This document shows positions 9,116-56,079 of a stretch of DNA of 64,000 nt, in pieces (the stretch's first letter is position 1; every line of letters begins with the position of its first letter). Both the position numbers and the translations under genes were made by a program. A model generated the notes under the pieces. That model made no database searches. It saw only the letters and a list, made by a program, of their open reading frames with translations, and was not told the origin of the DNA. The DNA is from an uncultured Chloroflexia bacterium (GTDB taxonomy: Bacteria; Chloroflexota; Limnocylindria; Limnocylindrales; CSP1-4). The stretch is taken from positions 15,701 to 79,700 of the forward strand of contig CAWJKF010000019.1 in NCBI GenBank assembly GCA_963843335.1. The letters are read 5' to 3'.

Positions 9116-9817
9116 CTACGTCGGGACGGGGGCCAGCGCGGTGCGCACCTGGAACCGCTCCGGATTCGGCGCGTCCGGCAGCGCGTCCCGGAGCCAGCCG
9201 GCGACGCGGATGGTGGCGGATGCCGCACCCTCCGGGCGTGGGCTCGGAAACGTGATGGCACCGTATGCGCCCGGACGGATGAGGGCCGCACGATGGAGGC
9301 CGCCGAGGCCCTCGGCATCGGGTGTCACGAACCCGGTCTGGGGCGTCGGCAGCTCCTGCCACGACATCGGCTGCCCCGAGCTGTCGAGGTAGTGGATCGA
9401 CGACGGGCCGGGGTCGAGCTCGAACTCCACCGGGTCGGTGCCGCCTGCGATGGCCAGCAGCGTGATGCTCGCACTGCCGTCCGCCTCGACCGCTGGCAGG
9501 TGCGCGTGGAAGGTGACGATCGCTCGCGGGCTCGCGCGACACACGTCCGCGACCCGCTCGGCGAGGGCGAGCAGGTCGGCGCGAGCCGGATCGGTTGGCG
9601 TTCGCAGGTCGATGGTATGGGGCCCGACACCCGCGGCGGTCAGCCGACCCGACTCGTCGTCGGTGGGTCGGCACATGAAGCTGCCGATGGTGGCGTCCTC
9701 GTGGCGCGGGCCACGGACGACCAGCCAGATGGTGCCATCGTCGAACAGTGCCAGCTCCTCGTCCACGGAGGTCGGCGCCGGTGTCTGCCACCGGAACGAC
9801 GTGAGCCGACGCATCAC
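9116..9817 (-). CDS. Hypothetical protein (233 aa), translationally coupled to the upstream metallopeptidase-like gene
   Basis: Strong GC3 bias and no motif I recognise. ATGA start/stop overlap at 9814-9817. Confidence 0.6.
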   Translation of the reverse strand: MMRRLTSFRWQTPAPTSVDEELALFDDGTIWLVVRGPRHEDATIGSFMCRPTDDESGRLTAAGVGPHTIDLRTPTDPARADLLALAERVADVCRASPRAIVTFHAHLPAVEADGSASITLLAIAGGTDPVEFELDPGPSSIHYLDSSGQPMSWQELPTPQTGFVTPDAEGLGGLHRAALIRPGAYGAITFPSPRPEGAASATIRVAGWLRDALPDAPNPERFQVRTALAPVPT

Positions 9818-11968
9818 GTGACCTCGGCCGTGAACTTCTTCTCGAACATGGTCGTGAGCTTGTCGTTGAACTGGCTGACCATCGGCCCGAACTGGTCGGC
9901 CCGGAGCGCGGTCGTCCTGTTCGAGCCCATGAGCCCCTGGTAGCTGTAGGTGACGTCCTGGGCCGGTGCCGTGCCGCCCGGCGCAGCGAGTGGATCGCGC
10001 CCACCGCCCGCGGTCGCGGCCTTGTCCGCATCGAGGCGCGCCTTCATCGCCGCCACCATCGCGACCATGTTCGGGTCGGGCGTACCCAGGGCCGCGACTC
10101 CTGCCGCGGGCGTGGTCATGATCCGGTTCACCTCGGTGTCGATGGTCGCCTGGAGATCGCTGACACTGGTGGTGAGGATGGGGTTGACGGTCGTGGCGAT
10201 GAGCTCTGTGGCCACCTCCCGTGACGCCGATCGTGCCGCGTTCGTGACCATCTGGTAGGCACGCGCGTACAGCTCCCGGGCATGCCCCATCTTCGGACTT
10301 GCCGCCACCCCGGGTGGCAGAGCCGCTGCCGCGGCTGCAGCGCTGGCGGCTGCCGCCTTGAGCGTGGCGACCATCTTGGTCGAGAACGCGGCCGCGGTGA
10401 CACCGGTCTCGACCGCGGATCCCGCCGCACCCCAGGTCGCGGGCAGCGCCGTCAGCTTCCCGGTCAGGCTCGACGGTGGCGCGACCGTGGGCAACCCGGG
10501 AGCCGCCGCCGCTCCCACGGTGCTCGTGGCCAGGCCGGCGGCCGGGGTCGCCTGCGCACCACCAGCGGCGGTCGTGGCCGGGATCGAGCCCTGGACGTTG
10601 ACCTTGACATCCCCGAGTCCGGTGACCGCGACGTTGGCGCTGCCTGCATCCAGGAACGCCTGCCAGTAGCGGTCCTGGATCTGCTTGGTCAGGGCTGCGG
10701 TCGAGAAGCCTGCCTCCACGCCCTCGTCGGCCCGGCTGATGTTGCTGAAGTTCGCGGTCGTCTCGAACGCCACCACGCCCGGCACGCTCGCGCCCAGCTT
10801 GGGGTCGGCGCCCGCGGTCAGCTGCGCCGTGAGCTCGTTGCGGACGTCGGCGCTCACCACGCTCTCCCGGGCCGCGGCGGCCATGCGTGCCTTGACCAGC
10901 TTGCGCTTGGCCCGCAGCGCCTGGGTGACCTCCGGCAGGGTCGCCGACAGCTGCGTGTACATCGGCTGTCGAAGTGCGGCAAGCACCATCCGTTGGACCG
11001 TCGTCCGGTCGAGGGCCGCCCGGGCGCTCGGCGCCGTATCGGGCGCGGCCTGGTGGATGAGCGCGTTCAGTTGCTCGTTGCTCTGGCTGTACTCATCGGG
11101 GATGCCCAGCAGGTGCCCGTACTCATGGGCAGCGATGACTTTGTCGTCACCGCTGTAGCCGCCCTTGTTCATGTACCAGTTGCCGGAATCGATCGGCTGT
11201 CCGGGTGACCCGGCCACGATCGACGGTGGGTGGACGATGATCCGGGCATCCTCGGGCTCCGCGGCGCCGAACACCGGGATGGACCGGAAGGTGACGGGCA
11301 ACCGTTTCCGGGTGTTGTCGGTGGTCAGGTTCCACTCCTCGCCCACGAGCGTGAGATGGCCGTTCCAGTGGGCCACGGCTCCGGTCGCGATGTCGGTCGC
11401 CCATGCCCGGCGCGGATCGGACGCCGGGTATCTCCGCTGGGTCGCCCGTGAGCTTGCCCAGCGGCGGCGTGTCCGGTGCCGCGCCCGGGGCGTTCGGGTC
11501 AGCGCTGTTCCGGGACTGGCTCAGGAATTTGATGCGGATGGAGATCGTGACACCGGAGTCGCCGCTGCGGGTCATCTCGTACGTCGACTTGCCCCCGAAC
11601 GATCCGGCGGTCGCCTTGCCCGTGGCGGGATCGTTGGTGTTGTAGAGGGTCTCGCTGCGTTTGGGAGCGATGGGCACACGCTGCGCGACCGAGCGCATCA
11701 CGCTGTTGACGGCGCGATTGCCCACGGTCCGCTGGAGCGCGAGCAGCTGCCGGCCAGAGAGCCCGTAGGGTGGGGTCGGCGGCGCCGTCGTGCCTGCCGC
11801 AGGGCGCGTCAGCACCTCGGCCATCTGGGTCGGCTCGAGGGATGCCGGCTCAGGAGCCTCGGGCACCCGCGTCCCGCCGTCCGTGCGGGCAGGTGCGGCC
11901 AGGGCTCGGGCGTGGTTGTCCGCAGCAGGACCCGGTCGAGCACCCTCGTGTGCGTGCGCGCCTGACAT
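9814..11968 (-). pseudogene. Effector-like protein: N-terminal LLALQRTVGNRAV motif, HExxH Zn-metallopeptidase motif (AAHEYGHLLGIPDEY), long Ala-rich helical C-terminal half; one frameshift near 11415-11430
   Basis: Two ORFs (11147..11977 and 9814..11376) join as ..LGKLTGDPAEIP|..DPRRAWATDIATGAVAHWNGHL. An LQRxxGNxA N-terminus followed by a metallopeptidase-like domain is the layout I associate with DUF4157-type proteins. Confidence 0.6.
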
Positions 11969-12036: not shown

Positions 12037-12678
<642 letters not shown>

Positions 12679-12682
<4 letters not shown>

Positions 12683-14168
12683 GACTCGCTCCCTACGCCG
12701 GCAGCGGCCGCCATCGTGGCTTCCGCCTGGGCGAGCGCCGTGAGCACCGCCCCTGCCTTCGCGGCGACCTCCGCCGACTCGCGCGCCGGGACCGAGTCGG
12801 CGACGATCCCCGCACCAGCATGCACGAAGGCGGTCCCGTCCCGAAGCACGACGCTCCGGATGGTGATGGCGATCTCCGTGTCGTCCGGCGAGAAGTAGCC
12901 GACCGCACCGCCATAGGCGCCACGCCTGGCGCCTTCCACCTCCGCGATCGCCTGCATCGCCCGCACCTTGGGTGCACCGCTGAGCGTGCCCGCCGGGAAC
13001 GTGGCGCGGACCGCATCGAACGCGTCCCGGTCGGCGCGCAGCCGTCCGCGCACCTCCGAGACGAGATGCATGACGTGGGAGTAGCGCTCCACGCCATACA
13101 GCAGCGGCCATTCGACCGTGCCCGGCTCCGCCACGCGCCCGACATCGTTGCGGGCGAGGTCGACGAGCATCGCGTGCTCGGCGAGCTCCTTCTCGTCGGC
13201 ACGCAGGTCCGCCTCCAGCTGCGCGTCGCGGACCGGGTCGTCGGATCGCGGCCGCGTCCCGGCGAGCGGCCGCGTGACGACCTCGCCATCGCGGACCCGG
13301 ACGAGCAGCTCCGGCGAGGCGCCCAGGATGGAGCTGCCGGGACCCAGGTCGAGCGCGAACAGGTAGGGCGACGGGTTGATGCGCCGGAGCGCGCGATAGA
13401 TGGTCAACGCGGGCGCCCGGTTGGGCACCGTGAACCGTCGGGCGGGCACCACCTGGAGCATCTCGCCCGCGTGGATGTCCTCGACGAGCTTGGCGACACC
13501 TGCCTCGTAGACCGGGTCGGCAGCCGGCGGGACGTGGCGGACGGCCCGCTGGCCAGCACCCGACAGGCGTGTCGGCACCTCGTCGGGGAGGGGATCGGCA
13601 AGCTGCGCAGCGACCGATGCGAGCCGCCCGTCCGCGTCGTCGTCCAGCAGCGTCGCGAGGGTCGCGGTCTGGGCGAGGTGGTCGAACGCGATGACCACCG
13701 AGGGCATGTGGAACAGCGCCTCGGGCAGGCCCACCGGGTCGGCATCGGGCACCGGCAGCCGCTCCCAGCGGGCGGCGGCGTCATAGGCGACGAAGCCGAT
13801 GCCCGCCGACAGCGGCAATGGGAATCCGGACGCCTCGGCAGCGCGGCGGCAGCACGCGCCGAAGCGCCTCCAGCGGGTCCGCCTCGGGGAAGCGCTCCAG
13901 CTCCCGGTAGTCGGCGTCCCAGACCACGGCTTCGCCCTGGTCGCACGATGAGCGTTCGGCCCCGGACGCCCACGAACGAGTAGCGGCCGTACCGCGCGCC
14001 ACCCTCGACGCTCTCGAGGATGAATGCCAGCCGGTCCTTGAGCCGCAGCGCGGCCGCGACGGGGGTGAGCGTGTCGGCGCTCAGCTCGATGACGGCGATC
14101 CTGCCGCCGCCGGGTGCCCGGTCTGCGGCCAGCGCGTCCCCGGTCCCTGGTGCCACCGGTGCGATCAC
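12679..14168 (-). pseudogene. trpE: Anthranilate synthase component I, two frameshifts (near 13960 and 13855)
   Basis: LESVEGGARYGRYSFVG | ..DADYRELE..DPLEALRR.. | GFVAYDAA...LQVVPARRF...INPSPYLF...GTRPR...[18 protein letters not shown]...[17 protein letters not shown]...[15 protein letters not shown] overlap with aroQ. Confidence 0.85.
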
Positions 14169-14611
14169 GGTGTGCCCTCCACGATGTCGATGAGTCGGTC
14201 CACAGCCTCCAGGTAGCCCTGCCAGCCCTTGCCCATCACGGTGCCGGTCACGGCAGGTTGGATGACCGACACCTGTCGCCACGCTTCGCGGATCCGGATG
14301 TCGCTGATGTGGATCTCGATGGCCGGGGTCTCCGCGGCCACCAACGCGTCGTGCAACGCATAGCTGGTGTGGGTGAACGCGCCGGGGTTGATGACCACGC
14401 CATCGTAGTCGCGCTGCTCCAGGCGGTCGATGAGCGCGCCTTCGTGGTTGGACTGGAAGGCATCCAGGGTCGAGCCGCGGGCCGTCGCCCGGTCGCGGCA
14501 CGCCTCGACGACCTGGGCCAGGGTCGTCGAGCCGTAGATCTCCGGCTGGCGCAGGCCCAGCCGTCCCAGGTTGGGGCCGTTGAGCAGCAGGATCGCATCA
14601 TGCCCGGTCAC
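14165..14611 (-). CDS. aroQ: Type II 3-dehydroquinate dehydratase
   Basis: ILLLNGPNLGRLGLRQPEIYG...FQSNHEGALID...VINPGAFTHTSYALHDA...EIHISD. Confidence 0.9.
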   Translation of the reverse strand: MTGHDAILLLNGPNLGRLGLRQPEIYGSTTLAQVVEACRDRATARGSTLDAFQSNHEGALIDRLEQRDYDGVVINPGAFTHTSYALHDALVAAETPAIEIHISDIRIREAWRQVSVIQPAVTGTVMGKGWQGYLEAVDRLIDIVEGTP

Positions 14612-16235
14612 CGCGGGCGAAGGGTGTGATCCGGTCGAGCGCGAGGTCCAGCTCCGACTCGGTCACGTCATCCACGTCGACGACGCTGCCGATGGCCATC
14701 GGCAGGATCCAGCGCTGCCGACCGCGGACCCGCTTCTTGTCCGAACCCAGGGCATCCCGGACGGCGGCCCGGTCGAAGGAGCGGGTGCAGGCGATAGCCC
14801 AGCCGGCGGAGCAGCGTCATCGATGCGCTCCGACGAGGCCCGACTCCGCGCCACGACACTCGGCGATGGCGGTGACCGCCCGCAGGCCGAGCACGACCGC
14901 CTGGCCATGTGGCAGCCGATAGCGGCTCTCGATCTCCAGAGCATGGCCAAGCGTGTGGCCCAGGTTGAGCGTCCGCCGCTCACCCGATTCGAACGGGTCC
15001 CGGTCGACGACTCCCAGCTTGAGGCGCATCGCGCGCTCGACCATCGCATAGCGTGCCGCCTCGTCGGGCGACCCGCCCGACTCGTCGCCGAGCGCGGCCT
15101 GCCCGCGGGTCTCGAGCAGCGACCACAGCCAGGGGTCGCCGATGATGGCCGACTTGAGCACCTCCGCCAGGCCGTCGAGCAGCAGCTCGCGAGGCAGCGT
15201 CCGCAGCGCCGCCACGTCGCCGATGACGGCCACGGGCGGCCAGAAGGCCCCGGCCGCATTCTTGGCCGCGGCGAGGTCGACGGCCACCTTGCCACCGATG
15301 GCCGAGTCGGACTGGGCGAGCCACGTGGTCGGCACCTGGATGAGCGGCGCACCCCGGAGGTAGAACGCCGCGGCCGTGCCGACGAGGTCGCCGGTGGTGC
15401 CGCCACCGACCGCGATCCAGGCATCGCCACGTTCCGCACGCAGCGCCGCCGCCGACTCCAGCAGCCGCTCCACGGAGCTCATCCGCTTGCCCCGCTCCCC
15501 CGCGGTGATGCGGAGCTGCCGCTCCCCCGGGAGTGCGGCCATGAGCCCGGGGAGTGCCGCGGCCGCCCGCTCGTCGGCCACGACCACGGGCGCGCCCGTG
15601 GACAGACCGGCCACGAGCGGGCCGAGCGTCGCGGCATCCAGGTCGCGGCCGTAGACGACGCGCGCCGTTCGGGGTCCCATCGGATGGTCGCGCCGGGCCT
15701 GTGCGTCGTACAGCCGCCGGGCGCCCGACCGTGGCCGGGATGCCGCGGCCAGCACCGCCGCCGCAACGGCCCGGGTGCTGCCCGCCGACTCCACCCGGTG
15801 GTCTGCTGCGGCGTAGAAGGGTTCCCGTGCCTTCCGCAGGCGCGCGAGCGCGGCGAGCGGGTCCCGCGCCACGAGCGGGCGGCGTTCGCCGGAGCGACGC
15901 ACCCGCTCTGCGAGCCGCTCGTCCGGGGCGTCGAGCCAGACGGCCGTGCCCGCCTCCCAGAGCGCCCAGCGGCTGAGCGGGTCGATGACCGCGCCACCGC
16001 CGGTGGCGATGACGGCGCCCGGGACATCCGCCGCGCGGCGCACCTCGGCCGCCTCGATCTGGCGGAACCGGGCCTCGCCGTCGCGCTCGATGATGTGCGC
16101 CGGCGAGCTGCCGGTCTCGGCCTTGATGCGCGCGTCGAGGTCGATGAACGGTCGACCGAGCGACTCGGCGACCAGGCGGCCGACGCTGCTCTTGCCGCTC
16201 GCGGACAGCCCCACGAGGACGATGGCGTCAGGCAT
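14598..16235 (-). pseudogene. Bifunctional shikimate kinase / 3-dehydroquinate synthase (AroK-AroB fusion). Two compensating frameshifts (near 14822 and 14778) create an in-frame stop at 14817
   Basis: AroK part: LVGLSASGKSSVGRLVAESLGRPFIDLD...ATGGGAV. AroB part: GGGTTGDLVG..AA.YLRGAPLIQVPTTWLAQSDSAIGGKVAVD...NLGHTLGHALE. The C-terminus resumes as ..FDRAAVRDALGSDKKRV..WILPMAIG. Confidence 0.85.
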
Positions 16236-17010
16236 CGACGCTCGCCCCCACCGCGTCCCGCAGCGCCGCCCGCATCGCGTCGATCGGCGCAGGCACGCCC
16301 AGCCACAGCTCGAGGCTCCTCCACGCCTGGCCCAGGAGCATCCCGCCGCCGCCCCGGGCGGTCGCTCCGGCGGCGCGAGCCTCACGGACGAGGCGTGTCG
16401 GGCTGGGTCGGTAGACCAGGTCGAACACGGCCAGGTCGGGCCGCAGCAGGTCCGCGGGCACGGGCGACTCGTCCGACCCGGTGCCCACGGGTGTGGCGTT
16501 GATGACCAGGTCCGCCGACGCGAGGAGCTCGGGGAGCCGGTCCCAGGAGCCATCGGCGCGGGCGACCCGGACGAGCGCGCCGTCGAGCCGGGTGACGGCG
16601 AGCTCGACCGCGCGGGACGCGCCACCGGCGCCCAGGAGCACGACCCGCCCGAGCCCGTTCGGCCGCAGCAGTCGCAGCTCGTCCATGAGCGCCGGCAGGT
16701 CCGTGTTGTGGCCGATGAGCCGTCCGTCGTCCCGGACCACGCAGTTGACGGCGTTCGCCTGCTGGGCATCGGGCGAGATGTCGTCGACGAGCTGTGCCAC
16801 CGCCGCCTTGTGGGGGATGGTCACGTTGGCACCGCCCGCGTCGGGATCCCGCAGCGCATCCAGCGCGTTCGGCAGCTCGGCCGCCGGGACGTCCCGGATC
16901 GTGTACCGGTGCGGCAGTCCCAGCGCTGCGAACGCGGCGGCCATCATCGCGGGTGATGCCGAATAGGCGATGCCCTGGCCGAGCAGCCCGAACCGGAGCG
17001 CATCGGTCAT
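16228..17010 (-). CDS. aroE: Shikimate dehydrogenase
   Basis: GQGIAYSASPAMMAAAF...NVTIPHK...NTD...LLGAGGASRAV...VINATPVG. Confidence 0.85.
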   Translation of the reverse strand: MTDALRFGLLGQGIAYSASPAMMAAAFAALGLPHRYTIRDVPAAELPNALDALRDPDAGGANVTIPHKAAVAQLVDDISPDAQQANAVNCVVRDDGRLIGHNTDLPALMDELRLLRPNGLGRVVLLGAGGASRAVELAVTRLDGALVRVARADGSWDRLPELLASADLVINATPVGTGSDESPVPADLLRPDLAVFDLVYRPSPTRLVREARAAGATARGGGGMLLGQAWRSLELWLGVPAPIDAMRAALRDAVGASVDA

Positions 17011-18289
17011 GCGTCCGTGCCGACCACGGGCGTCGCTTCGGCCGCGGCATCGTCCGGCAGCGAGGAGACGATCGGCGTTCCGTCCGTCGTCCCGGCGGTG
17101 CCACGCGGACCCTGGGACCGAAGCCGGCGACGCCGCACCGCGGCCAGGACGTCACCCATGGTGTCGCCACCGAACGTCGCCAGCAGCGCATCGGCGAGCA
17201 CGAGCGCGATCATCGCCTCGCCCACGACCGCGGCGCGCGGCAGGATGGCGACGTCGCTCCGCTCGATGTGCGCCCGTCCTGGCTGGCCGGTCGCGAGGTC
17301 GACGGAATCGAGCGGCTTGCGCAGCGTGGCCACCGGCTTGACCGCGGCGCGCACCACGATCGGCTCGCCGTTGCTCATGCCGCCCTCGACGCCCCCGGCG
17401 CGGTTGGAGCGCCGGCCCCAGGACGGTCGGCCCGGGTCGACCTCGTCGTGGACGGCGCTGCCACGACGCGCCAGCACCCCGAAGCCAAGGCCGATCTCGA
17501 CGCCCTTGACCGCCTGGATGCCCATGGTCGCGGCGGCGAGCGCGGTGTCCAGGCGGGTATCCCATTCGGCGTTCGAGCCGACGCCGATGGGCATCCCTTC
17601 GACCACGACCACGAAGCTGCCACCGATGGAGTCGCCCGCCTCGATGACCGCATCCACCTCGGCCATCATCGCCGCCTCGGCCACCGGGTCCGGGCACCGG
17701 AGCGGCGTGGGGTCGATGCGGTCGCGCTGCCACCAGCCATCCCCGATGCGGTCGAGCGGGTCGTCCCCGTCCGGGAACGCCCGGATGGGTCCCAGCTGGT
17801 CCACGAAGCTCCAGATCGTCACGCCGGACGCCGCGAGCAGCTGCCGGCAGACCGATCCCGCCGCGACCCGGGGTGCCGTGGATCGGGCCGACGCGCGTTC
17901 GAGCACCTCCCGGATATCGGGCGTGTCGTACTTGATGGCGCCCGCGAGGTCCGCGTGACCCGGCCGGGCCAGCGTGATGGGCTGGGGCCGCCTCCCTCGG
18001 GGATGGGCTCGACCGACATCCGCTCGGTCCAGCTCTTCCAGTCCAGGTTGGCGACGCTGAAGGCGAGCGGCGAGCCGAGCGTGCGCCCGAAGCGCAGACC
18101 CGCGCTCCACTCGACCCGGTCGCGCTCGATCCTCATCCGCCGGCCGCTGCCGTAGCCGTGCTGTCGACGGGCCAGGTCGCGGTCGACCTCCCTGGTCGAC
18201 ACGCGCAGCCCGGCCGGCAGGCCATCGAGGATGCCGCTCATGCCCGGGCCGTGCGACTCGCCAGCGGTGAGCAGCCGGAGCCGGTTCAT
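17007..18289 (-). pseudogene. aroC: Chorismate synthase, one frameshift (single-base deletion in a C-run) near 17990
   Basis: LTAGESHGPGMSGILDGLPAG...RRQHGYGSGRRM.. | ..RPGHADLAGAIKY...ERASARSTAPRVAAG...MSNGEPIVVRAAVKP. Confidence 0.85.
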
Positions 18290-19695
18290 CGGCTGGTGCC
18301 CACTGCCGCCGGGCCGCCGCCGGTGAGCAGCGCCAGGTCGGTCCAGAAGGTGGGGTAGGAGACCTCCGCACAGGCCGGGTCATCGATGGTCACGCCATCC
18401 GCGACCCCCGTCAGCGCTGCGATCGCGAAGGCCATCGCGATGCGATGGTCGCCGTCGGTGACGATGGTCGCCCCGGCTGGTCGTCCGCTGCGCGACGCGC
18501 CGGGCGTGACGCGCCAGCCATCGTGGAGCTCCTCGGCGTCGACGCCGATGGCCGCGAGGCCATCGACCACGAGCGCGATGCGATCCGATTCCTTGGTCCG
18601 CAGCTCCCCGGCGTCGTGGAGCTCGGATGGGCCGTCCGCAGCCGCCATGACGATGGCCAGGAGCGGCAGCTCGTCGATGAGGTCGGCGACCCGGATGCCA
18701 CCGAGGCGGATGCCGTGGATGGGCTGGCCGCCGCGGATGACCAGGTCCCCCACGGGTTCGGGACCGGTGGGGTCGCTCGCCGAGACGGTGATGTCGGCGC
18801 CCATCTCGCGCAGCACATCGATGACGGCGGTGCGGCTGGGGTTGAGGCCCACGTCGCGGATGCGCAGCTCGGCGTCCGGATGGAGCGCGGCCGCCGCCAG
18901 CCAGAACGCGGCGGACGAGATGTCGCCCGGGACATCGATATCGCGGGCCGCGAAGCCCGCCGGACCGGTGATCGTGGTCGTGAAGCCGTCGCGCGCCACG
19001 GGCACGCCCAGCCAGGCCAGCAGCCGCTCGGTGTGGTCGCGGGTCGGCCCCGGGGTCGTGATGGTCGTCCGTCCATCCGCGGCCAGCGCCGCGAGGGTGA
19101 CCGCACCCAGCACCTGGGCGCTCGCGACCGGCAGGTCGTGGTGCAGCGCCCGCAGCGGTCGCGCGCCCCGGATGGTCACCGGCGCGTGGCCGTCCACCGT
19201 CGAGACCGAGGCACCCATCTGGCGCAGCGGCACCGCGACCCGCTCCATCGGCCGGCGCGACAGCGACGCGTCGCCGGTCTGGCGTGCCGCCGCGACCCGC
19301 CCCGCGAGCGCACCCATGGAGAGGCGCATGCTCGTGCCGGCATTGCCGTGGTCAAGCAGCTCGCCGCCGACGCCCGGCAGGCAGGCCGCGATGCGGGTAC
19401 CGCCGCCGCGCACCCGGTAGCGCGTCACACCGTCATGGTCGTGCGACTCCTCGAGGATGGCGCCCAGCGTCGTGAGCACGCTCGCGGTGCTCCGGACGTC
19501 CCCGCCCGGCGCGGGGATGCGCACGTCCGCCTCGCCCTCGCCGAGGGCATCGAACAGCAGCGCACGGTGCGCGATCGACTTGTCGCCGGGCAGCCGCAGC
19601 TCCCCCCGGATACGAGCAGCCGGCTCCACCCGGCCGGAGGGGGTCGCCATGGACCCGCCCACCCGGCCGATGCCTGGGTCTCCGGCGTCGGTCAC
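18286..19695 (-). CDS. aroA: 3-phosphoshikimate 1-carboxyvinyltransferase (EPSP synthase)
   Basis: LRLPGDKSIAHRALL...LDHGNAGTSMRL...GDISSAAFW...LRTKESDRI...DHRIAMAFAIA. GTGA and ATGA overlaps with both neighbours. The alternative ATG start at 19653 is also in frame. Confidence 0.9.
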   Translation of the reverse strand: MTDAGDPGIGRVGGSMATPSGRVEPAARIRGELRLPGDKSIAHRALLFDALGEGEADVRIPAPGGDVRSTASVLTTLGAILEESHDHDGVTRYRVRGGGTRIAACLPGVGGELLDHGNAGTSMRLSMGALAGRVAAARQTGDASLSRRPMERVAVPLRQMGASVSTVDGHAPVTIRGARPLRALHHDLPVASAQVLGAVTLAALAADGRTTITTPGPTRDHTERLLAWLGVPVARDGFTTTITGPAGFAARDIDVPGDISSAAFWLAAAALHPDAELRIRDVGLNPSRTAVIDVLREMGADITVSASDPTGPEPVGDLVIRGGQPIHGIRLGGIRVADLIDELPLLAIVMAAADGPSELHDAGELRTKESDRIALVVDGLAAIGVDAEELHDGWRVTPGASRSGRPAGATIVTDGDHRIAMAFAIAALTGVADGVTIDDPACAEVSYPTFWTDLALLTGGGPAAVGTSR

Positions 19696-21046
19696 GCCAC
19701 GGAGCCTGCGGTGGGCAGCCGCTCCGCCTGTGCGGCGGCATCGGCCGCGGCCTGGCGCCGCTGCGCGGAGCGGGCGGCACGGATGATGGCCGAGTAGACC
19801 TGCTCCCGCTCGTCCGAGGTCAGGACGCTGCCTTCCGACGAGACGGCGCGCTCCATGAGGGCCCGCTCGCGACCCACGTCATGGCCATGGTCGTCACCTT
19901 CGCGGGTCTGCTGCACCGCGACGGCCAGCTGGGCCCGCTCCTCGACGAGCGCCGCGAGGCGGCGTCGACGTCATCGATGCGACCCCGCAGCCGGGCGAGG
20001 TCACCGGGCACGATGGCCTGCGCATGCGTGCTGGCGGCAGCCGGCTGGCGCAGGTACTCGAAGCGGCGCAGGTCGTCCATCAGGTCGCCGAACTCGGGGA
20101 ACGAGAGCGACTGCTCGGAGTCCGAGCGGGCACGCGGCGGGTCGGGATGGACCTCGATGATGAGGCCGTCGGCCCCCGCGGCGGCGCCGGCGACGGCCAT
20201 CGGCCGCACCAGGGAGCGGTGTCCGGTGGCGTGCGACGGGTCGACGATGACCGGCAGGTGGGTCCGCTCGCGGAGCACCGGCACGGCGGTCAGATCGAGC
20301 GTGTTCCGGGTCGACGGGTCGAAGCTCCGGATGCCCCGCTCGCACATCACCACGTTGGGATTGCCTGCCGCGAGGATGTACTCGGCGGCCATCAGCCATT
20401 CCTCGATGGTCGCGGACAGGCCACGCTTGAGCAGCACCGGCAGCCGGCTCCGGCCGACCGCCTTGAGCAGCACGAAGTTCTGCATGTTCCGGGCGCCGAC
20501 CTGGAGCATGTCGATGTAGTCCTCGAAGACGGGCACATCGGCGGGGTTGGTGACCTCGGTCACGATGGGCAGTCCGACCTCGTCCCGGACATCGGCCAGC
20601 AGCTTGAGCCCTTCGATCTCCATCCCCTGGAAGGCATACGGGGAGCTGCGCGGCTTGAAGGCGCCGCCGCGCAGGATGGTGGCGCCCTCGCGCTTGACCC
20701 AGCGGGCCGTGGCCGTGAGCTGCTCGCGCGACTCGACCGCGCAGGGACCGGCCATGACCGCGATCGGCGCGCCACCACCGATGACCACATCCCGGACCTT
20801 GACCCGCGTCCGGTCCGGGTGATGCTCGCGGCTCGCCAGCTTGTACGGCTTGGAGACGCGCATGACCTGCTCCACGCCGGGCATCGATACGACGTGCTCG
20901 ACGCGTTCCACCCCGGCGCCGACGACACCGATCACGCTGCGTTCCTCTCCGACCATGACGTAGGCCTCGAGGCCCTCCGCCTCGATGGCCTTCTTGACGT
21001 CCTCGACCAGCGCGCTGTCGACGCCGGTCCGCATCACCACGATCAT
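19692..21046 (-). pseudogene. Three-domain DAHP synthase: N-terminal ACT/ferredoxin-like domain, type I-beta catalytic core and C-terminal AroQ chorismate mutase; one frameshift near 19960
   Basis: MIVVMRTGVDSALVEDVKKAIEAEGLEAYV..VSKPYKLASREHHP (Thermotoga-type regulatory domain). Core: AGPCAVESREQ...LRGGAFKPRSSPYAFQG...DPSHATG. Then LARLRGRIDDVDAA | LAALVEERAQLAVAV...RERALMERA...IIRAARSAQ (CM-like). Confidence 0.8.
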
Positions 21047-21074
21047 CCTGCTCACCGCCCTGTGTGATCCCGGG

Positions 21075-21109
21075 AAAACAAAAACGCAGGGGCCTTGCGG
21101 CTCCTGCGT
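21075..21109 (-). terminator. Intrinsic terminator (attenuator) inside the 5' leader of the aromatic operon
   Basis: The sense strand reads ACGCAGG-A-GCC[GCAA]GGC-C-CCTGCGT followed by TTTTTGTTTT. It lies 29 nt upstream of the DAHP synthase ATG and downstream of the promoter and leader ORF. Confidence 0.7.
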
Positions 21110-21163
21110 CTGCGGGCACGACTGCCTCTGCTGCCGAGCGCTGCTCGGCGGCATCCGTACCCG

Positions 21164-21193
21164 CTAGGCGTAAAACCAGAAGTGCTGAGTCAT
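21164..21193 (-). CDS. Candidate leader peptide MTQHFWFYA (Phe-Trp-Phe-Tyr run)
   Basis: ATG ACT CAG CAC TTC TGG TTT TAC GCC TAG read directly from the reverse complement. The ATG lies 10 nt after the -10 box, so the mRNA would be leaderless or nearly so. Confidence 0.6.
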   Translation of the reverse strand: MTQHFWFYA

Positions 21194-21203
21194 CAGGGTC
21201 GGG

Positions 21204-21232
21204 ACGATACCGGTGTGTCGTGCCCTTGTCAA
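21204..21232 (-). promoter_or_regulatory. Sigma-70-type promoter TTGACA-17 nt-TATCGT for the aromatic operon
   Basis: -35 at 21232-21227 and -10 at 21209-21204 on the minus strand, read directly. Confidence 0.6.
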
Positions 21233-21312
21233 CGGCAGCGATGAGCCCTGCGGACGACCAAGGCCGGTGCGAGGGGGATCCGAGCACATGGGACGCATGA
21301 CCTTGCTCGCCG

Positions 21313-22032
21313 TCACTCGACGGGGGACATCGCCTGTCGGATCTGATCGTTGGCACGGTCGCTGGCACGACCCATCACCGTTCGCGCAACGACGGCATCT
21401 CCCGCGGCGATGGCGTCCACGAGCTCACGGTATTCGGTCACCGCCGTGTCGATGAACCCCGTCGCCCAGGGCACTCGCGCGACCCAGGCCTGGAGCAGCG
21501 TCCTGATGGTTGCCACGGCGCCCGACAGGACGTCGTTGCCGGCGACTTCAGCGATCGCTCGCAGCAATGCCGCCTGTGCCGACCCGAACCGGACCGGGTC
21601 GTGCCGGGCCGCCTTCATGGCCGCGACGCTCGCGCGCAGGTCGGCGATGTCACGGTCATCGTGTCGTTGTGCGGCAAGCCCGACGAGGATCACGTCCAGG
21701 TGGCGTCGTGCTTCGAGCAGGTCGATGACATCGTGGACTCCCAGCGCCAGGCCCCACTCGATCGACTGCGGCAGGATCTCGGCGTCGATCCGCTTCACAT
21801 ATGTCCCGTCGCCGAGCCGCACCTCGAGCAGGCCGAGCAGGGTGAGCGACTTGAGGGCCTCCCGGATGACGGACCTGCCGACCCCGAGCGTCTCGGCCAG
21901 CTTGCGCTCCGGCGGAAGCCGGTCACCGGGCTGGACGCGTCCGGACAGCAGGTAGTCGAGCAGCTGGCGACTGATCGACACGGACGTGCCTTCGCGCTGG
22001 GAGAGATCGATCGGCCCGAGCTCACCGATCAT
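21313..22032 (-). CDS. GntR-family (FadR subfamily) transcriptional regulator
   Basis: N-terminal wHTH: PGDRLPPERKLAETLGVGRSVIREALKSLTLLGLLEVRLGDGTYV, plus an all-helical FCD-like C-terminal domain. Confidence 0.85.
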   Translation of the reverse strand: MIGELGPIDLSQREGTSVSISRQLLDYLLSGRVQPGDRLPPERKLAETLGVGRSVIREALKSLTLLGLLEVRLGDGTYVKRIDAEILPQSIEWGLALGVHDVIDLLEARRHLDVILVGLAAQRHDDRDIADLRASVAAMKAARHDPVRFGSAQAALLRAIAEVAGNDVLSGAVATIRTLLQAWVARVPWATGFIDTAVTEYRELVDAIAAGDAVVARTVMGRASDRANDQIRQAMSPVE

Positions 22033-22805
22033 GGGCGCACCTGCTCGCCCGGGACGTCATCACGGTCGGTTGGCGGCACCTGTCCTTGCTCTTCGAGCGT
22101 CCCCCACAGGCGCTTCCGGGCGCCCTCCATGTGCTCGAGCATGGCGGCTCGCGCCGCCTGCGCGTCACCCTGCTCGATGGCCTCGTAGACCGCTGCGTGC
22201 TCGGCCCACGTCGCTGGGCGTGACCCGGGCGCATATGCCACCCGGGTGATCCACACCTCCAGCAGACTTCGGATGCTGCGCATGATCTGCCCCAGCGATT
22301 GGTTGCCGGTCGCGCCGGCGATGCCGAGGTGGAATGCCACATCGGCCCGGACGAACTCGTCGTTGTCCATCGTCACCTGCATGGTCGCGAGATCGCGGTG
22401 CATCTCGTGCAGCGCTGCCGCATCGCGACGCTCCGCGGCGAGGCCCGCGAGGACGACCTCGAGCTCGGAACGCGCCTCGACCAGGTCCTGGGACTGCTTG
22501 GCGCCGAGGCGAAGACCCCACTCGATGGCCAGCGGCAGCAGCGGCGAATCGGTCCGCTTGAGGTAGGTCCCATCCCCCTGCCGGACGTCGATCAACCCGA
22601 GCACCGCCAGGGACTTGATCGCCTGGCGGACGTGCGACCGGGCGACGCCCAGCATCTCGGCGAGCTGGCGCTCGGACGGGAGGCGCTGCCCTGGCTTGAC
22701 CCGGCCGGAGATCAGGTAGTCCAACAGCCGGCGCGTGACCTCGGAAGAGATGGGCTCGCGTGCCTGTTGGGCGACAGGTTGGAGGCCGGGCAGCATGGTC
22801 GTCAT
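22029..22805 (-). CDS. GntR-family (FadR subfamily) transcriptional regulator, tandem paralogue
   Basis: PGQRLPSERQLAEMLGVARSHVRQAIKSLAVLGLIDVRQGDGTYL plus an FCD-like domain. 4-nt overlap with the downstream GntR gene. Confidence 0.85.
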   Translation of the reverse strand: MTTMLPGLQPVAQQAREPISSEVTRRLLDYLISGRVKPGQRLPSERQLAEMLGVARSHVRQAIKSLAVLGLIDVRQGDGTYLKRTDSPLLPLAIEWGLRLGAKQSQDLVEARSELEVVLAGLAAERRDAAALHEMHRDLATMQVTMDNDEFVRADVAFHLGIAGATGNQSLGQIMRSIRSLLEVWITRVAYAPGSRPATWAEHAAVYEAIEQGDAQAARAAMLEHMEGARKRLWGTLEEQGQVPPTDRDDVPGEQVRP

Positions 22806-22850
22806 TCTAGGCAGCGGCCCGGGTCGTCTGGTGGGCGTCCCAAAGCGAGC

Positions 22851-23711
22851 TCATGCATCGTCCCTGACCGAGGTGGATCGCGGGTCGGCATCGGTGAGGG
22901 GCCTGGAGCGTCGATCCGCCGGGTCCAGCCACGCGAAGGTGTCCGCGGCATCCGCCGAGGGACGATACTCGAGGCCGACGAACCCGCCGTATCCGACGTG
23001 CTCGAGTTCCTCGAGCACACGAGTGACGGCGACCTCACCGGTCCCGGGTCGCCCTCGATCGGGCACGTCGGCGACCTGCACATGGCCGATGTCCGCGCCC
23101 TGGGCGCGGATCCGAGCGACGAGATCCCCTTGGGCTCGCTGCACGTGGTAGATGTCGAACAGGATCCGAACGGGCGTCCCTGCGGCGTCAGCGGCACGCC
23201 GTGTGAGCGTGACCGCATCTTCCACGCGCGTGAGCCCGTAGTGAGGGAAGTCCGTTGGATTGAGCGGCTCCAGCACGAGCAGCGCGCCAGCCGCCGCGAC
23301 ACGCGGCGCCGCGATCGCGAGACTGGCGACCGCCGACTCCTCCAGCACGTCCCGTGCGACACCCGGAGGCGGCACGCCAAAGTGGCTGTTGACGATGGTG
23401 CCGCCCAGCCGCCGGACCACCTCGGCGGTCGCGTCGACGTTATCGATGAAGCGGGAGCGCTCCTCGGGGCGGCAGAGGAGCCCGTGGTGACCCGCGGCCG
23501 GGTCGCCCAGGTCGAGATTGAGCAGGACCAGCTGGACACCGGCAGCATCGAATGCCTCGACCAGGTCGTCCACGTCGCGAAGTGCCGGGACCGGCCCATC
23601 GAATGGCCACCACATCTCGACCGCGTCGAACCCGGCGGCGGCCGCGGCGGCCGGGCGGCCCAGCAGCGGGACGTCCGGGAAGAGGATCGAGATGTTGGCG
23701 TCGAAGCGCAT
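22851..23711 (-). CDS. Hydroxypyruvate isomerase-family TIM-barrel protein (Hyi / 2-oxo-tetronate isomerase OtnI-like)
   Basis: MRFDANISILFPDVPLLGRPAAAAAAGFDAVEMWWPF...LEPLN...HVQVADVPDRG.PGTGE...GYGGFVGLEY. Confidence 0.75.
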   Translation of the reverse strand: MRFDANISILFPDVPLLGRPAAAAAAGFDAVEMWWPFDGPVPALRDVDDLVEAFDAAGVQLVLLNLDLGDPAAGHHGLLCRPEERSRFIDNVDATAEVVRRLGGTIVNSHFGVPPPGVARDVLEESAVASLAIAAPRVAAAGALLVLEPLNPTDFPHYGLTRVEDAVTLTRRAADAAGTPVRILFDIYHVQRAQGDLVARIRAQGADIGHVQVADVPDRGRPGTGEVAVTRVLEELEHVGYGGFVGLEYRPSADAADTFAWLDPADRRSRPLTDADPRSTSVRDDA

Positions 23712-23833
23712 GTCGCGGACCCCCGGTTCAGTGCCCGACAGCGGGCTCGGTCACGGCCCAGGTCTCACGACCCCGGCTCGCGGTCATCCGTTGGATCCCG
23801 TTGGCTCGCATCACCACGTCCGCATCGTCACCG

Positions 23834-24796
23834 TCATGTGCTCGGGTGAGCCACCCGTGCCTTGAGGTCCAATGCGTCGTGCGCCGCCTTGACGACACCC
23901 GCGGTGGACAGCCCGAGGTGCTCGAGGAGCTCCAGGTATGGCCCGGTCGTGCCGAACCTGTCGTCGATGCCGACCCGGATGATGGGCACCGGATAGGTGC
24001 CACCCAGTGCCTCGGCGACCGCACCCCCGAGCCCACCGACGATGCTGTGCTCCTCCGCGGTGACAAGCGCCCCGGTCTCCTGGGCCGCCGCCAGGATCGT
24101 CGTGGTATCGAGCGGCTTGATGGTGTGGACCTCCACCACCCGGGCATGGATCCCCTCGGCCGACAGCAGCTCCGCGGCTTCGAGGCATCGGCTGAGCATG
24201 ATGCCGGTGCCGACCAGGGTGACATCGGCGCCAGGTCGGTGGACCATCGCCGTGCCGATCCGGGGGGCGTAGGTGTCGTCGAACAGGACGGGCACCTCAT
24301 TGCGGTTCAGGCGCACGTAGACCGGGCCGGGCCAGGCCGCGATCTGCGGCAGCAGCCTGGTGACGGCCATGGCATCGGCAGGTACGACGATCGTCATGCC
24401 GGGCAATGCGCGCATGATCGCGATGTCGGCGATCGCGTGATGCGTGGGCCCGTCGAACGAGTCCGACACACCAGCATAGGCGCCCATGAGCTTGACCGGC
24501 GCACCGCCATAGCAACAGTGGGTCCGGACCATCTCGAGGGCCCGGGTGGCCAGCAGGAACGCGAACGTATTGGCGATCGCCACGCGCCCGGTGTAGGCCA
24601 CCCCGGCGGCGACGTCCACCAGCGACTGCTCGGCGATGCCGACATTGAGGAATTGGTCCGGGAACGCCTCCGCGAACTGATAGCTGAAGTCCGAGTTGGA
24701 GACGTCCGCCGAGAGGACGACCACGTCGTCGCGGGCACGTCCAAGCTCGACGAGGGCCTGGCCGTATGCCGGGCGCATGGGCGCCATCGGGGTCAT
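23834..24796 (-). CDS. Transketolase, C-terminal (pyrimidine-binding) subunit
   Basis: FPDQFLNVGIAEQSLV..AAG.A..G...FA.F....A.E.VR...GAYAGVSDSFDGPTHHAIADIAIMRALPGM. ATGA overlap with the N-terminal subunit gene. Confidence 0.85.
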   Translation of the reverse strand: MTPMAPMRPAYGQALVELGRARDDVVVLSADVSNSDFSYQFAEAFPDQFLNVGIAEQSLVDVAAGVAYTGRVAIANTFAFLLATRALEMVRTHCCYGGAPVKLMGAYAGVSDSFDGPTHHAIADIAIMRALPGMTIVVPADAMAVTRLLPQIAAWPGPVYVRLNRNEVPVLFDDTYAPRIGTAMVHRPGADVTLVGTGIMLSRCLEAAELLSAEGIHARVVEVHTIKPLDTTTILAAAQETGALVTAEEHSIVGGLGGAVAEALGGTYPVPIIRVGIDDRFGTTGPYLELLEHLGLSTAGVVKAAHDALDLKARVAHPST

Positions 24797-25728
24797 GCCG
24801 TGACCTCTTCGCCCAACTCGACCAGCGAGCTTCGGAGTTCGCTGCGCGCCTGCTGATACTGCTCCGCGTTCGGTATGCCACCGTGCCAGCGATGGTCGTA
24901 CTCCATGAAGCTGACCCCGCGCCCCTTGGTGGTGCGGGCGAGGATGACCGACGGCCGGGCGTGGACCTCGTCGGCGCGGTCGAGCGCGTCCAGCACCTCG
25001 CGCACGTTGTGCCCGTGCACCTCCTGCACGTGCCAGCCGAACGAGCGCCATCGATCCGCGAGTGGCTCGGTCGGCATGACGTCCGCCGTGGCGCCCGTCT
25101 GCTGGATGCCGTTCACGTCCACGATCGCGGTGAGGTTCCCGAGGCGGTACTTCGCCGCGAACATGACGCCCTCCCAGACGATGCCGGCGTCGAGCTCGCC
25201 ATCCCCCAGGAGGACATACACGCGCGCACGGGTCGCACGAGCCGACGGCGCGCTCGCCGCGGATGGCTTCGGGATGCCCCGGGAGAGTGACCACGCCATG
25301 CCGGCGCCGACAGCGATCCCGTGCCCCAGCGGCCCGGCCACCATCTCGACACCGGGCAGCTTGAGGTCCGGGTGCCCCTCCAGACGTGTCGGGAAATGAC
25401 GGAACGTCGTCAGCTCCGCTACCGGGAAGAACCCGGCGCGGGCGAGGACCGCATAGAGGATCGGGGCGGCATGGCCCTTGGACAGCAGGAACCGATCCCG
25501 CTCTGGCCAGCCCGGGTCCGCCGGATCGACCCGCAGGTGGTGGAAGTAGAGCGCCGCGATGATCTCCGCCGACGAGAACGGGCCACCCAGATGCCCGGTC
25601 TGGGCGCGGTAGACCATGTCCAGGACATCCATCCTGAGGTGCTGGGCCCGCCTCGCGAGGTCGAGCGCGAGCTCGTCCGTGTGTTGGTGCATCCGTGTGC
25701 CTCGCACCGCAGGGTTGGCCGCTGTCAT
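24793..25728 (-). CDS. Transketolase, N-terminal (TPP-binding) subunit
   Basis: TGHLGGPFSSAEIIAALYFHHL...DRFLLSKGHAAPILYA...GPLGHGIAVGAG...LLGDGELDAGIVWE. The start may instead be the ATG at 25692. Confidence 0.8.
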   Translation of the reverse strand: MTAANPAVRGTRMHQHTDELALDLARRAQHLRMDVLDMVYRAQTGHLGGPFSSAEIIAALYFHHLRVDPADPGWPERDRFLLSKGHAAPILYAVLARAGFFPVAELTTFRHFPTRLEGHPDLKLPGVEMVAGPLGHGIAVGAGMAWSLSRGIPKPSAASAPSARATRARVYVLLGDGELDAGIVWEGVMFAAKYRLGNLTAIVDVNGIQQTGATADVMPTEPLADRWRSFGWHVQEVHGHNVREVLDALDRADEVHARPSVILARTTKGRGVSFMEYDHRWHGGIPNAEQYQQARSELRSSLVELGEEVTA

Positions 25729-25741
25729 GGCGCCCGTGTAT

Positions 25742-25753
25742 TGGTCAACCGGT
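25742..25753. promoter_or_regulatory. TGGTCAACCGGT box (copy 1 of 3), followed by the GGTGCACC palindrome, upstream of the transketolase operon
   Basis: The exact 12-mer is shared with 27421-27432 and 52046-52057. On the minus strand it contains TTGACC. Confidence 0.45.
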
Positions 25754-25802
25754 GCACCAGTGTACCACACGGCGACAGCGGCACCCGGACCAGGCGGGCG
25801 TG

Positions 25803-55463: not shown

Positions 55464-55492
55464 TTGACGTGGTTGTGAGTCATCACTAACAT
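55464..55492 (+). promoter_or_regulatory. Promoter TTGACG-17 nt-TAACAT; the -10 box ends 8 nt before the TetR ATG (leaderless transcript predicted)
   Basis: Read directly. Confidence 0.55.
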
Positions 55493-55500
55493 GCGCCGAC

Positions 55501-56079
55501 ATGACCTCTGCCGCATCCGTCGCGACCCCCGCTGTCCACCGCCTGACAGCCATCGACCGCCGTGAGGCGATCCTGCAGGCGGCCATGGAAGCGTTCGCGG
55601 AGACGGGTCTCCACGGCACCTCCACGGAGACCATCGCCCGCAACGTCGGCATCTCGCAGCCGTACCTGTTCCGGCTGTACGGGACCAAGAAGGAGCTGTT
55701 CCTGGCCGCCATCCGGCGGTGCTTCGACGACACCCTGGAGCGTTTCCGGGTGGCGGTCGAGGAGGGGACACCCGACATGCCCGTGCCACAGCGGATCGGG
55801 GACGCGTACGGCGAGATGCTCCGGGATGGCACCAAGCTCCGGATGCAGATGCAGTCGTACGCGGCCTGTGACGACCCCGATGTACGGGCAGCCGTCCAGA
55901 CAGGCTTCGGCGAGGTCACCGAGTACGTCGCGTCCGTGGCCGGGGTCGAGGCATTCCGTCTCGCCACCTTCATGGGTCGGGGCATGCTCCTCAACGTCAT
56001 GGCGTCGATGGACGTCCTGGATGCGACCGATGGCTGGGCCGCCATGCTGCGAGAGGGCTGCATGGCAGAGCCTCAGTGA
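55501..56079 (+). CDS. TetR/AcrR-family transcriptional regulator
   Basis: REAILQAAMEAFAETGLHGTSTETIARNVGISQPYLFRLYGTKKELF. Confidence 0.85.
   Translation: MTSAASVATPAVHRLTAIDRREAILQAAMEAFAETGLHGTSTETIARNVGISQPYLFRLYGTKKELFLAAIRRCFDDTLERFRVAVEEGTPDMPVPQRIGDAYGEMLRDGTKLRMQMQSYAACDDPDVRAAVQTGFGEVTEYVASVAGVEAFRLATFMGRGMLLNVMASMDVLDATDGWAAMLREGCMAEPQ

Follow-up and report, generated by a model that had tools for sequence, protein, structure and literature searches.

The stretch of DNA analysed here, 64 kb of contig CAWJKF010000019.1 from an uncultured Chloroflexia bacterium and hereafter called the window, carries on its minus strand a shikimate/chorismate operon, whose products comprise all seven common-pathway enzymes, chorismate mutase (CM) and TrpE/TrpG. 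[quoted passage not shown] An initial annotation of this DNA had proposed the leader as a candidate ribosome-mediated attenuator of the whole operon, and the gene content that it had listed as well as the promoter, the MTQHFWFYA ORF, the small hairpin, the terminator stem at 21109-21084 and the DAHPS start codon were all found where it had placed them (Table 1), the small hairpin forming the top of the larger P1.

Table 1. Coordinates of the leader unit and of the operon that follows it (positions of the window)
Feature	Position	Strand	Remarks
-35 hexamer TTGACA	21227..21232	-	TTGAC(A) box at an equal distance from the start of the leader ORF in all related loci
-10 hexamer TATCGT	21204..21209	-	17-nt spacer to the -35 hexamer; ends 10 nt before the leader ATG; spacing kept in 38/38 unique leaders
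Leader ORF MTQHFWFYA*	21164..21193	-	9 codons plus UAG: ATG ACT CAG CAC TTC TGG TTT TAC GCC TAG
Regulatory run UUC UGG UUU UAC	21170..21181	-	Phe-Trp-Phe-Tyr
Hairpin P1	21112..21164	-	About -37 kcal/mol; lower stem of 9-11 bp from the G of the UAG stop, internal loop, upper hairpin
P1 upper hairpin	21133-21149	-	GCCGAGC-AGC-GCUCGGC; top of the larger P1
Terminator T	21075..21110	-	Stem 21110-21083, about -20 kcal/mol, ACGCAGG-A-GCC[GCAA]GGC-C-CCTGCGT, then TTTTGTTTT to 21075
Candidate weak antiterminator (AT)	21099..21126	-	P1 3' arm 21116-21126 with T 5' arm 21099-21107; status uncertain
DAHPS-CM	19695..21046	-	Opens the operon; type I-beta DAHP synthase carrying a ferredoxin-like domain at its N-terminus, in fusion with CM
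Rest of operon	12037..19695	-	5-enolpyruvylshikimate-3-phosphate (EPSP) synthase, chorismate synthase, shikimate dehydrogenase, shikimate kinase plus 3-dehydroquinate (DHQ) synthase, DHQase II, TrpE, TrpG

The sigma-70-like site TTGACA-17 nt-TATCGT is the only one present between 14 and 24 kb of the window, and from the promoter spacing we infer a transcription start that would leave a near-leaderless mRNA with a predicted 5' untranslated region of about 2-4 nt. The leader ORF lacks a Shine-Dalgarno (SD) sequence, and four of its nine codons specify aromatic residues. P1 begins 5 nt past the last aromatic codon, T starts 1 nt past P1, and the DAHPS ATG at 21046 is located 28 nt beyond the U-tract. 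The leader as a whole folds with -75.4 kcal/mol (z = -3.5 as compared to shuffles). Two of its components are singular within the window: no second run of four consecutive aromatic codons occurs in any of the six frames, and the T-run of the terminator (from 21084) is the sole run of at least five T's on either strand. With no other such run in the 64 kb, ordinary gene ends in this genome evidently do without canonical U-tract terminators. A simple terminator scan overlooked the T stem, owing to its internal mismatch. The TetR gene at 55501 shares the leaderless promoter-to-start geometry of the leader ORF, as the initial annotation had correctly pointed out, and no third such site exists in the window; this TetR-family gene (Pfam TetR_N, 55464-56079, plus strand) shows the arrangement TTGACG, 17 nt, TAACAT, 8 nt and ATG.

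To place the leader in a wider context, DNA of relatives (loci numbered Lnnn, such as L009 and L122) was compared with the window, giving a comparative set of 38 distinct leaders drawn from 48 loci, in addition to the window itself, and two alignments, A1 and A2. All these 48 other loci have a homologous unit immediately ahead of the DAHP synthase gene and belong to high-GC Limnocylindria-type Chloroflexota, the closest homologs being Chloroflexota metagenome-assembled genomes labelled Candidatus Limnocylindria or 'uncultured Chloroflexia' and not Actinobacteria. The unit invariably consists of TTGAC(A), about 17 nt, a -10 box, about 10 nt and a start codon without SD sequence, followed by 2-4 variable codons, 3-5 aromatic codons, P1 and T with U6, with an ORF of 8-12 codons. 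Thus, the small ORF and its aromatic codons, which the initial annotation had known from one stretch of DNA, are kept upstream of orthologous DAHPS genes in 38 unique leaders. The N-terminal leader codons vary freely, while start, frame and stop are kept and substitutions inside the run replace one aromatic residue by another, such that runs like FWFY, YWYF, WFY, FYF, FFFY and YFWY are observed. One relative (L081) has a peptide identical to MTQHFWFYA, and L161-L169 specify the near variants MTQQFWFYA, MTHAFWFYA and MQSIFWFYG. The upstream neighbours vary and include GntR (in the window), TauE, PadR, NUDIX and a sugar-binding regulator, and the downstream operon is constant, with the order DAHPS-CM, EPSP synthase, chorismate synthase and shikimate dehydrogenase intact in the relatives; hence the leader element belongs to the operon.

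The leaders fall into two types. Type A, to which the window belongs (n = 15 leaders), has 8-9 codons, always contains Trp and places the stop codon at the P1 base, as in MTQHFWFYA, MTHAFWFYA, MQSIFWFYG, MTRYWYFS, MTYQWFYG and MNKFWFYV. Leaders of type B (alignment A2, 23 sequences) run to 11-12 codons, as in MSHYFYFRCPA, and their final CCG GCA UGA lies in the P1 5' arm. When a covariance model is derived from type B only, it finds every type A leader, with exactly one copy per locus and always just upstream of DAHPS, and by the measure of this family model types A and B are shown to be homologous. RNAalifold backs both P1 and T: compensatory changes are present in the P1 upper hairpin (A1 columns 46/60 and 49/57) and the top of the T stem covaries (columns 93/103), with the lower 7 bp of the T stem invariant in type A. 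The lower stem of P1 is invariant within each type, whereas type A differs from type B and from L122 by compensatory changes. The terminator is present in all family members. A further signature resides in codon usage, as Phe is specified by TTC in 98% of cases in the window genes (247 versus 5 TTT, 2%) and TTT reaches 55% in the leaders (39 versus 32), a bias towards the rare UUU that fits tRNA sensing.

Some departures from this scheme were noted. In certain subfamilies, Ile/Leu codons occur among the aromatic ones with retention of the pyrimidine run, as in MCAIYLF(I/T)xPA and MH(H/D)IYLFTCPA; loci of further subfamilies are L014:5841-5955, L021:358-472, L091:3844-3956, L103:1853-1967 and L122:1129-1244. 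L122 has a 19-codon leader (MFAYPFYFSRGLGVRGPSD) and a wholly different P1 sequence, with the terminator stem GCAGAGG/CCUCUGC unchanged. L169:1031-1148 presents a natural Phe-to-Ser replacement inside the run (MQSIFWSYG, UUU to UCU), the remainder of the leader being unchanged. In the window, an ATG at 21154 inside the P1 5' arm is in frame with DAHPS (21044-21154, stop-free) and creates a spurious 444-codon ORF that crosses P1 as well as T; other type A leaders do not keep this ATG, at which gene-calling programs may wrongly place the start. A +1 slip on UUU-U was also considered: in the window, the alternative frames stay open across T, and open frames are expected at 70% GC. Rfam covariance models (Trp_leader, Phe_leader, His_leader, Leu_leader and others, T-boxes and riboswitches) gave no relevant match with E up to 10 in the window region 19000-23000 or in L009 5700-6100. 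No other leader/terminator units for other amino acids were found in the compared loci, nor another T-run in the window.

Given the conserved ORF, aromatic run, promoter, P1 and T tied to the DAHPS operon, together with the codon bias, the leader of the shikimate/chorismate operon is probably a transcription attenuator of the leader-peptide kind, which senses how much charged tRNA-Phe, tRNA-Trp and tRNA-Tyr is available. In such a scheme, the sigma-70-type promoter would deliver a near-leaderless RNA, a ribosome would begin at the 5'-proximal AUG and would have to decode UUC-UGG-UUU-UAC. Termination at T would be the default outcome, and a ribosome delayed on the aromatic codons would allow more transcripts to continue past T into DAHPS-CM and the genes behind it. 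This part of the initial proposal stands, inasmuch as ORF, aromatic run, promoter spacing, P1 and T are conserved in 48 loci; its other part, a stall-dependent antiterminator, was not convincingly found.

Search for an antiterminator was carried out by truncated-transcript and ensemble folding, with the ribosome footprint masked and the transcript cut before the T 3' arm. Minimum free energy (MFE) folding with ribosome masks, in which T formed always, had proved too strict, since E. coli trpL would act alike, and was replaced by these tests. The procedure recovered the 2:3 helix of E. coli trpL as a positive control and, as further controls, antiterminator helices measuring 12, 10 and 14 bp for L102, L055 and L110, respectively. 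Applied to type A, it revealed a single candidate, the helix AT, formed between the P1 3' arm and the T 5' arm: with the P1 5' arm masked and the T 3' arm unmade, its mean pairing probability is 0.5-0.6 (0.7-0.9 in the window) in 15/15 leaders, and its formation requires occlusion of at least 4-5 nt of the P1 5' arm, with a sharp switch at alignment column 33-34. A by-eye search for P1-loop/T-arm pseudoknots, an extended terminator or pairing of the P1 3' arm with post-terminator sequence revealed nothing conserved.

The AT helix raises the main rival to our view of how ribosome position is coupled to termination, namely a classical three-hairpin attenuator, in which P1 would be the 1:2 anti-antiterminator or pause hairpin and AT the 2:3 antiterminator. 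A ribosome at the last aromatic codon would then hide the first 4-5 nt of P1 and favour AT, and a ribosome that finishes the ORF would be released fast, upon which P1 would re-form and T would terminate transcription. The AT topology in every type A leader and the sharpness of the switch speak for it, and dual pairing would explain why the sequences of the P1 3' arm and the T 5' arm are invariant; moreover, a G-to-U change seen in L004 and L084 makes T less stable and yet adds a pair in an alternative AT register. The results on AT itself are, however, the first to weigh against reading the leader as an attenuator. AT is broken up by internal loops into 3+2+3 bp, amounts to -6 to -11 kcal/mol and is no better than dinucleotide shuffles (z = -0.44, about 0), whereas trpL, L102, L055 and L110 give 10-14 contiguous bp in the same test. 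In homologous type B, the equivalent helix is shrunk to 3+2 bp and is essentially absent. Thus, of the structure exclusive with the terminator stem, for which the initial annotation had no pairing to offer, this candidate is all that folding provided.

The geometry of the stalled ribosome adds a further difficulty. In types A and B alike, 7-8 nt separate the start of the last aromatic codon from the first pair of P1, and the stop codon is positioned at the P1 base in type A and 9 nt inside P1 in type B. With the last aromatic codon in the A site, the P1 base comes to lie at about +12 (P-site numbering), which, as is known from structural studies of the mRNA channel and helicase of the ribosome, is just beyond the part that is obligatorily single-stranded. 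When the structural footprint is used (helix allowed from +11), the switch point from P1 to AT is met only with the stop codon in the A site, so AT would form in response to a ribosome at the stop codon and not at an aromatic codon, and the logic of the classical helix is inverted, another point on the negative side. With a footprint of the nuclease type (+12 nt counted from the A site), the last aromatic codon does come up to the switch threshold, in favour of the classical scheme. Against this scheme, a sensor role is possible for just one of the four aromatic codons. Taken together, we regard the classical mechanism as unlikely, and to judge by the computations the switch departs from the classical one.

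By this geometry, a ribosome stalled on an aromatic codon would leave P1 closed and flush against its mRNA entry site, and a ribosome that has passed the run must open P1. Such a closed P1 at the aromatic stall, together with the inverted logic of the classical helix, leads us to favour P1 acting as a gate, a preference that is tentative and falls short of being probable. In this gate, closed P1 with a ribosome parked at its base beside T would prevent efficient termination, and a terminating ribosome would open P1 and permit it. Extended to the short-leader family at large, this would define an attenuator without an RNA antiterminator, with P1 as the switch and a steric hairpin-gated coupling, which is a more speculative proposition and on balance doubtful. 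In the steric version, closed P1 would put either the ribosome or the bulk of P1 within 1-8 nt of the T stem, such that completion of the stem in the polymerase exit channel would be blocked, while a ribosome past the aromatic run would unwind P1 up to the stop (in type B it would reinitiate and reach the P1 apex), creating about 50 nt of slack in which T could form.

Concerning movement of ribosomes on P1, the stop of the type B leader overlaps an AUG (AUGA), which opens a second ORF of 5-7 codons, whose stop (UAG, UGA or UAA) lies in the P1 apical loop in 21/23 leaders. This position of the stop is maintained across at least eight distinct loop sequences (for example, L009:5884-5906 and L012:5894-5916) and suggests that ribosomes travel up P1 in type B, because the second ORF stops in the apical loop. 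In type A, a +1-frame UAG or UAA is present in the apical loop in 10/15 leaders; the window is without it.

To the points already listed on the negative side are to be added those that concern the gate and the ribosome itself. To our knowledge, the gate model is without precedent and without a demonstrated physical basis. The linker between P1 and T, 1 nt in type A, ranges from 1 to 8 nt in type B, which counts against a simple steric gate. As a possible physical basis of the gate, put-like RNAs were considered, which are cis-acting antiterminators that bind the transcribing RNA polymerase and render it resistant to terminators further downstream; a sequence-specific contact of this kind is made less likely by the P1 sequence, which differs between the types and in L122. 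Furthermore, both translation of the ORF and the rise of read-through upon starvation are what we infer from the sequences, with indirect support from the conserved start, frame and stop, from the leaderless promoter geometry shared with the TetR gene and from the rare-codon bias.

Two other pairings of the aromatic codons were considered and rejected, using cross-lineage partners and shuffled leaders as pairing controls (dinucleotide shuffles served this purpose for AT). A helix with the T 5' arm, called P0 and tempting in truncated folds, has -6.7 kcal/mol natively versus -7.1 kcal/mol in shuffled leaders and is no better than cross-lineage combinations; its logic is also wrong, as the stalled ribosome would cover the helix. 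Pairing with the ribosome-binding site (RBS) of DAHPS, taken as a selected interaction, likewise does not exceed cross-lineage partners (native -9.1 versus shuffled -10.3 kcal/mol). Both are attributed to pyrimidine-rich codons meeting purine-rich segments.

The second of these pairings is the foundation for explaining the leader by translational attenuation, in which the aromatic codons would sequester the DAHPS RBS and start codon, a stalled ribosome would free the site, and T would be a constitutive leaky terminator. The full-length MFE structure of the window indeed pairs the F-W codons with CAGGA-UG and GGGCG at or just upstream of the DAHPS AUG (duplex of -13.6 kcal/mol), like pairings exist in most related loci, and the mechanism has been demonstrated in M. 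smegmatis Ms5788A (bioRxiv 10.1101/834739). Apart from the energies falling within the composition controls, the distance between T and the start codon ranges from 31 to 131 nt, and the sole canonical terminator of the window, along with its conservation, would be left unexplained, making this a quite improbable account. The P0 pairing bears on a different explanation, according to which the leader is no sensor at all: the ORF would be incidental or would encode a peptide with a function of its own, the hairpins would be kept for insulation, as a small RNA or as a protein site, and the codons would reflect a constraint at the RNA level. The aromatic stretch does pair with the T 5' arm in truncated transcripts (in type B, 93% of cells pair versus 56-74% in slid registers), the subfamilies with IYLF keep the pyrimidine run without keeping aromaticity throughout, and the deduced nature of ORF translation leaves it some room. 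Composition-matched controls, as said, pair equally well, codon identity shifts while aromaticity, frame, start and stop persist, the element accompanies specifically the aromatic pathway in different lineages and arrangements of the operon, and the rare-UUU bias goes in the direction of tRNA sensing, which renders a non-sensing leader very improbable and leaves the attenuator as the reading to be compared with known systems.

Leader-peptide attenuation is long established for trpL and pheL. Like these enterobacterial leaders, that of the window precedes a biosynthetic operon and has an ORF with a run of slowly decoded end-product codons, followed by a 1:2 hairpin and an intrinsic terminator. 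It differs from them in its near-leaderless RNA without SD sequence, in an ORF of nine codons, in the lack of an Rfam match, in regulatory codons that are located upstream of hairpin 1 and not within it, and in that one leader mixes three amino acids. In addition, the window is without a significant 2:3 helix in a test that shows that of trpL clearly.

The aroF leader of Corynebacterium glutamicum that the initial annotation had mentioned is AroR, with Phe-Tyr-Phe, and read-through into aroF is reported to rise upon Phe limitation (Neshat et al. 2014, cited in PMC11802643 and PMC4046766). The aroR-aroF attenuator resembles the system described here in having consecutive aromatic codons in a short leader directly upstream of a DAHP synthase gene, Phe-Tyr-Phe being a type B motif, and in belonging to a high-GC Gram-positive-type bacterium; the comparison with the window covers the leader motif. 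It differs in phylum, in that here a type I-beta DAHPS-CM heads all seven common-pathway genes plus TrpEG, whereas aroF of C. glutamicum specifies a type I-alpha enzyme in a small operon, and in that the window leader adds Trp. Since aromatic leaders upstream of DAHP synthase genes were already known, the arrangement is less unusual than the initial annotation had considered it.

Within the same phylum, Anaerolineae-type Chloroflexota have aromatic leaders followed by a canonical terminator (L102:2548-2727, L055:2530-2695 and L110:2560-2740, with FVYLYFYF, FYSYYYF and FCYFYFGY). They share with the window an aromatic-rich leader and an aromatic-pathway operon with the same DAHPS family, in their case ordered CM(AroH)-prephenate dehydratase-DAHPS. 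Unlike the window, their ORFs have 30-40 codons and run through hairpin 1:2, and antiterminators of 10-14 bp form upon stalling and are masked when the ribosome is at the stop codon; the short-leader family model does not detect them. A third comparison is offered by the mycobacterial poly-Cys leader Ms5788A (bioRxiv 10.1101/834739), which is likewise a leaderless short-ORF amino-acid sensor in a high-GC host with an exceptionally stable leader structure in place of competing hairpins of moderate stability. Ms5788A acts on translation by SD sequestration without a terminator, whereas here the terminator is the conserved output and SD pairing does not rise above the composition control.

The attenuator concept is known, and the short-leader family is new. 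No report of such an attenuator for Chloroflexota was found in the literature. The family would provide a concrete regulatory element for the whole aromatic pathway of uncultured soil Chloroflexota (Limnocylindria), with a single leader that mixes Phe, Trp and Tyr codons in order to gate all common-pathway genes together. Classical long leaders of the Anaerolineae type and stripped-down short leaders coexist in one phylum for the same pathway, and the two constitute a natural system for understanding how ribosome position can reach a terminator without competing helices. If true, the steric gate would be an undescribed coupling of translation to intrinsic termination. The family model is usable for annotating such leaders in metagenomes, and the canonical terminator serves as a rare landmark in these high-GC genomes.

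Several genes of the window operon (12037-21046) are split by frame breaks, namely DAHPS|CM, chorismate synthase, TrpE and TrpG (for example, at about 19959, 17819-18383, 12679-14501 and 12037-13111). The DAHPS|CM break is due to a single C missing from a CCC run near 19959, with the CM domain intact in the next frame. As the genes split in the window are whole in the relatives, these breaks are probably homopolymer errors of a long-read assembly. Alternatively, the window could hold a decaying pseudo-operon copy, which would also count against a functional attenuator at this locus.

Just upstream of the leader promoter (21313-25770, minus strand), two tandem GntR/FCD regulators, a xylose-isomerase-like TIM-barrel gene and a gene with a transketolase N-terminal domain are located. 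Transketolase provides erythrose-4-phosphate, a substrate of DAHP synthase; this transketolase-containing neighbourhood is not conserved in the relatives. At the other end, downstream of TrpG, an open frame of 568 codons (9817-11520, minus strand) with a strongly coding-like GC content at third codon positions (0.88) and without Pfam match may share the operon.

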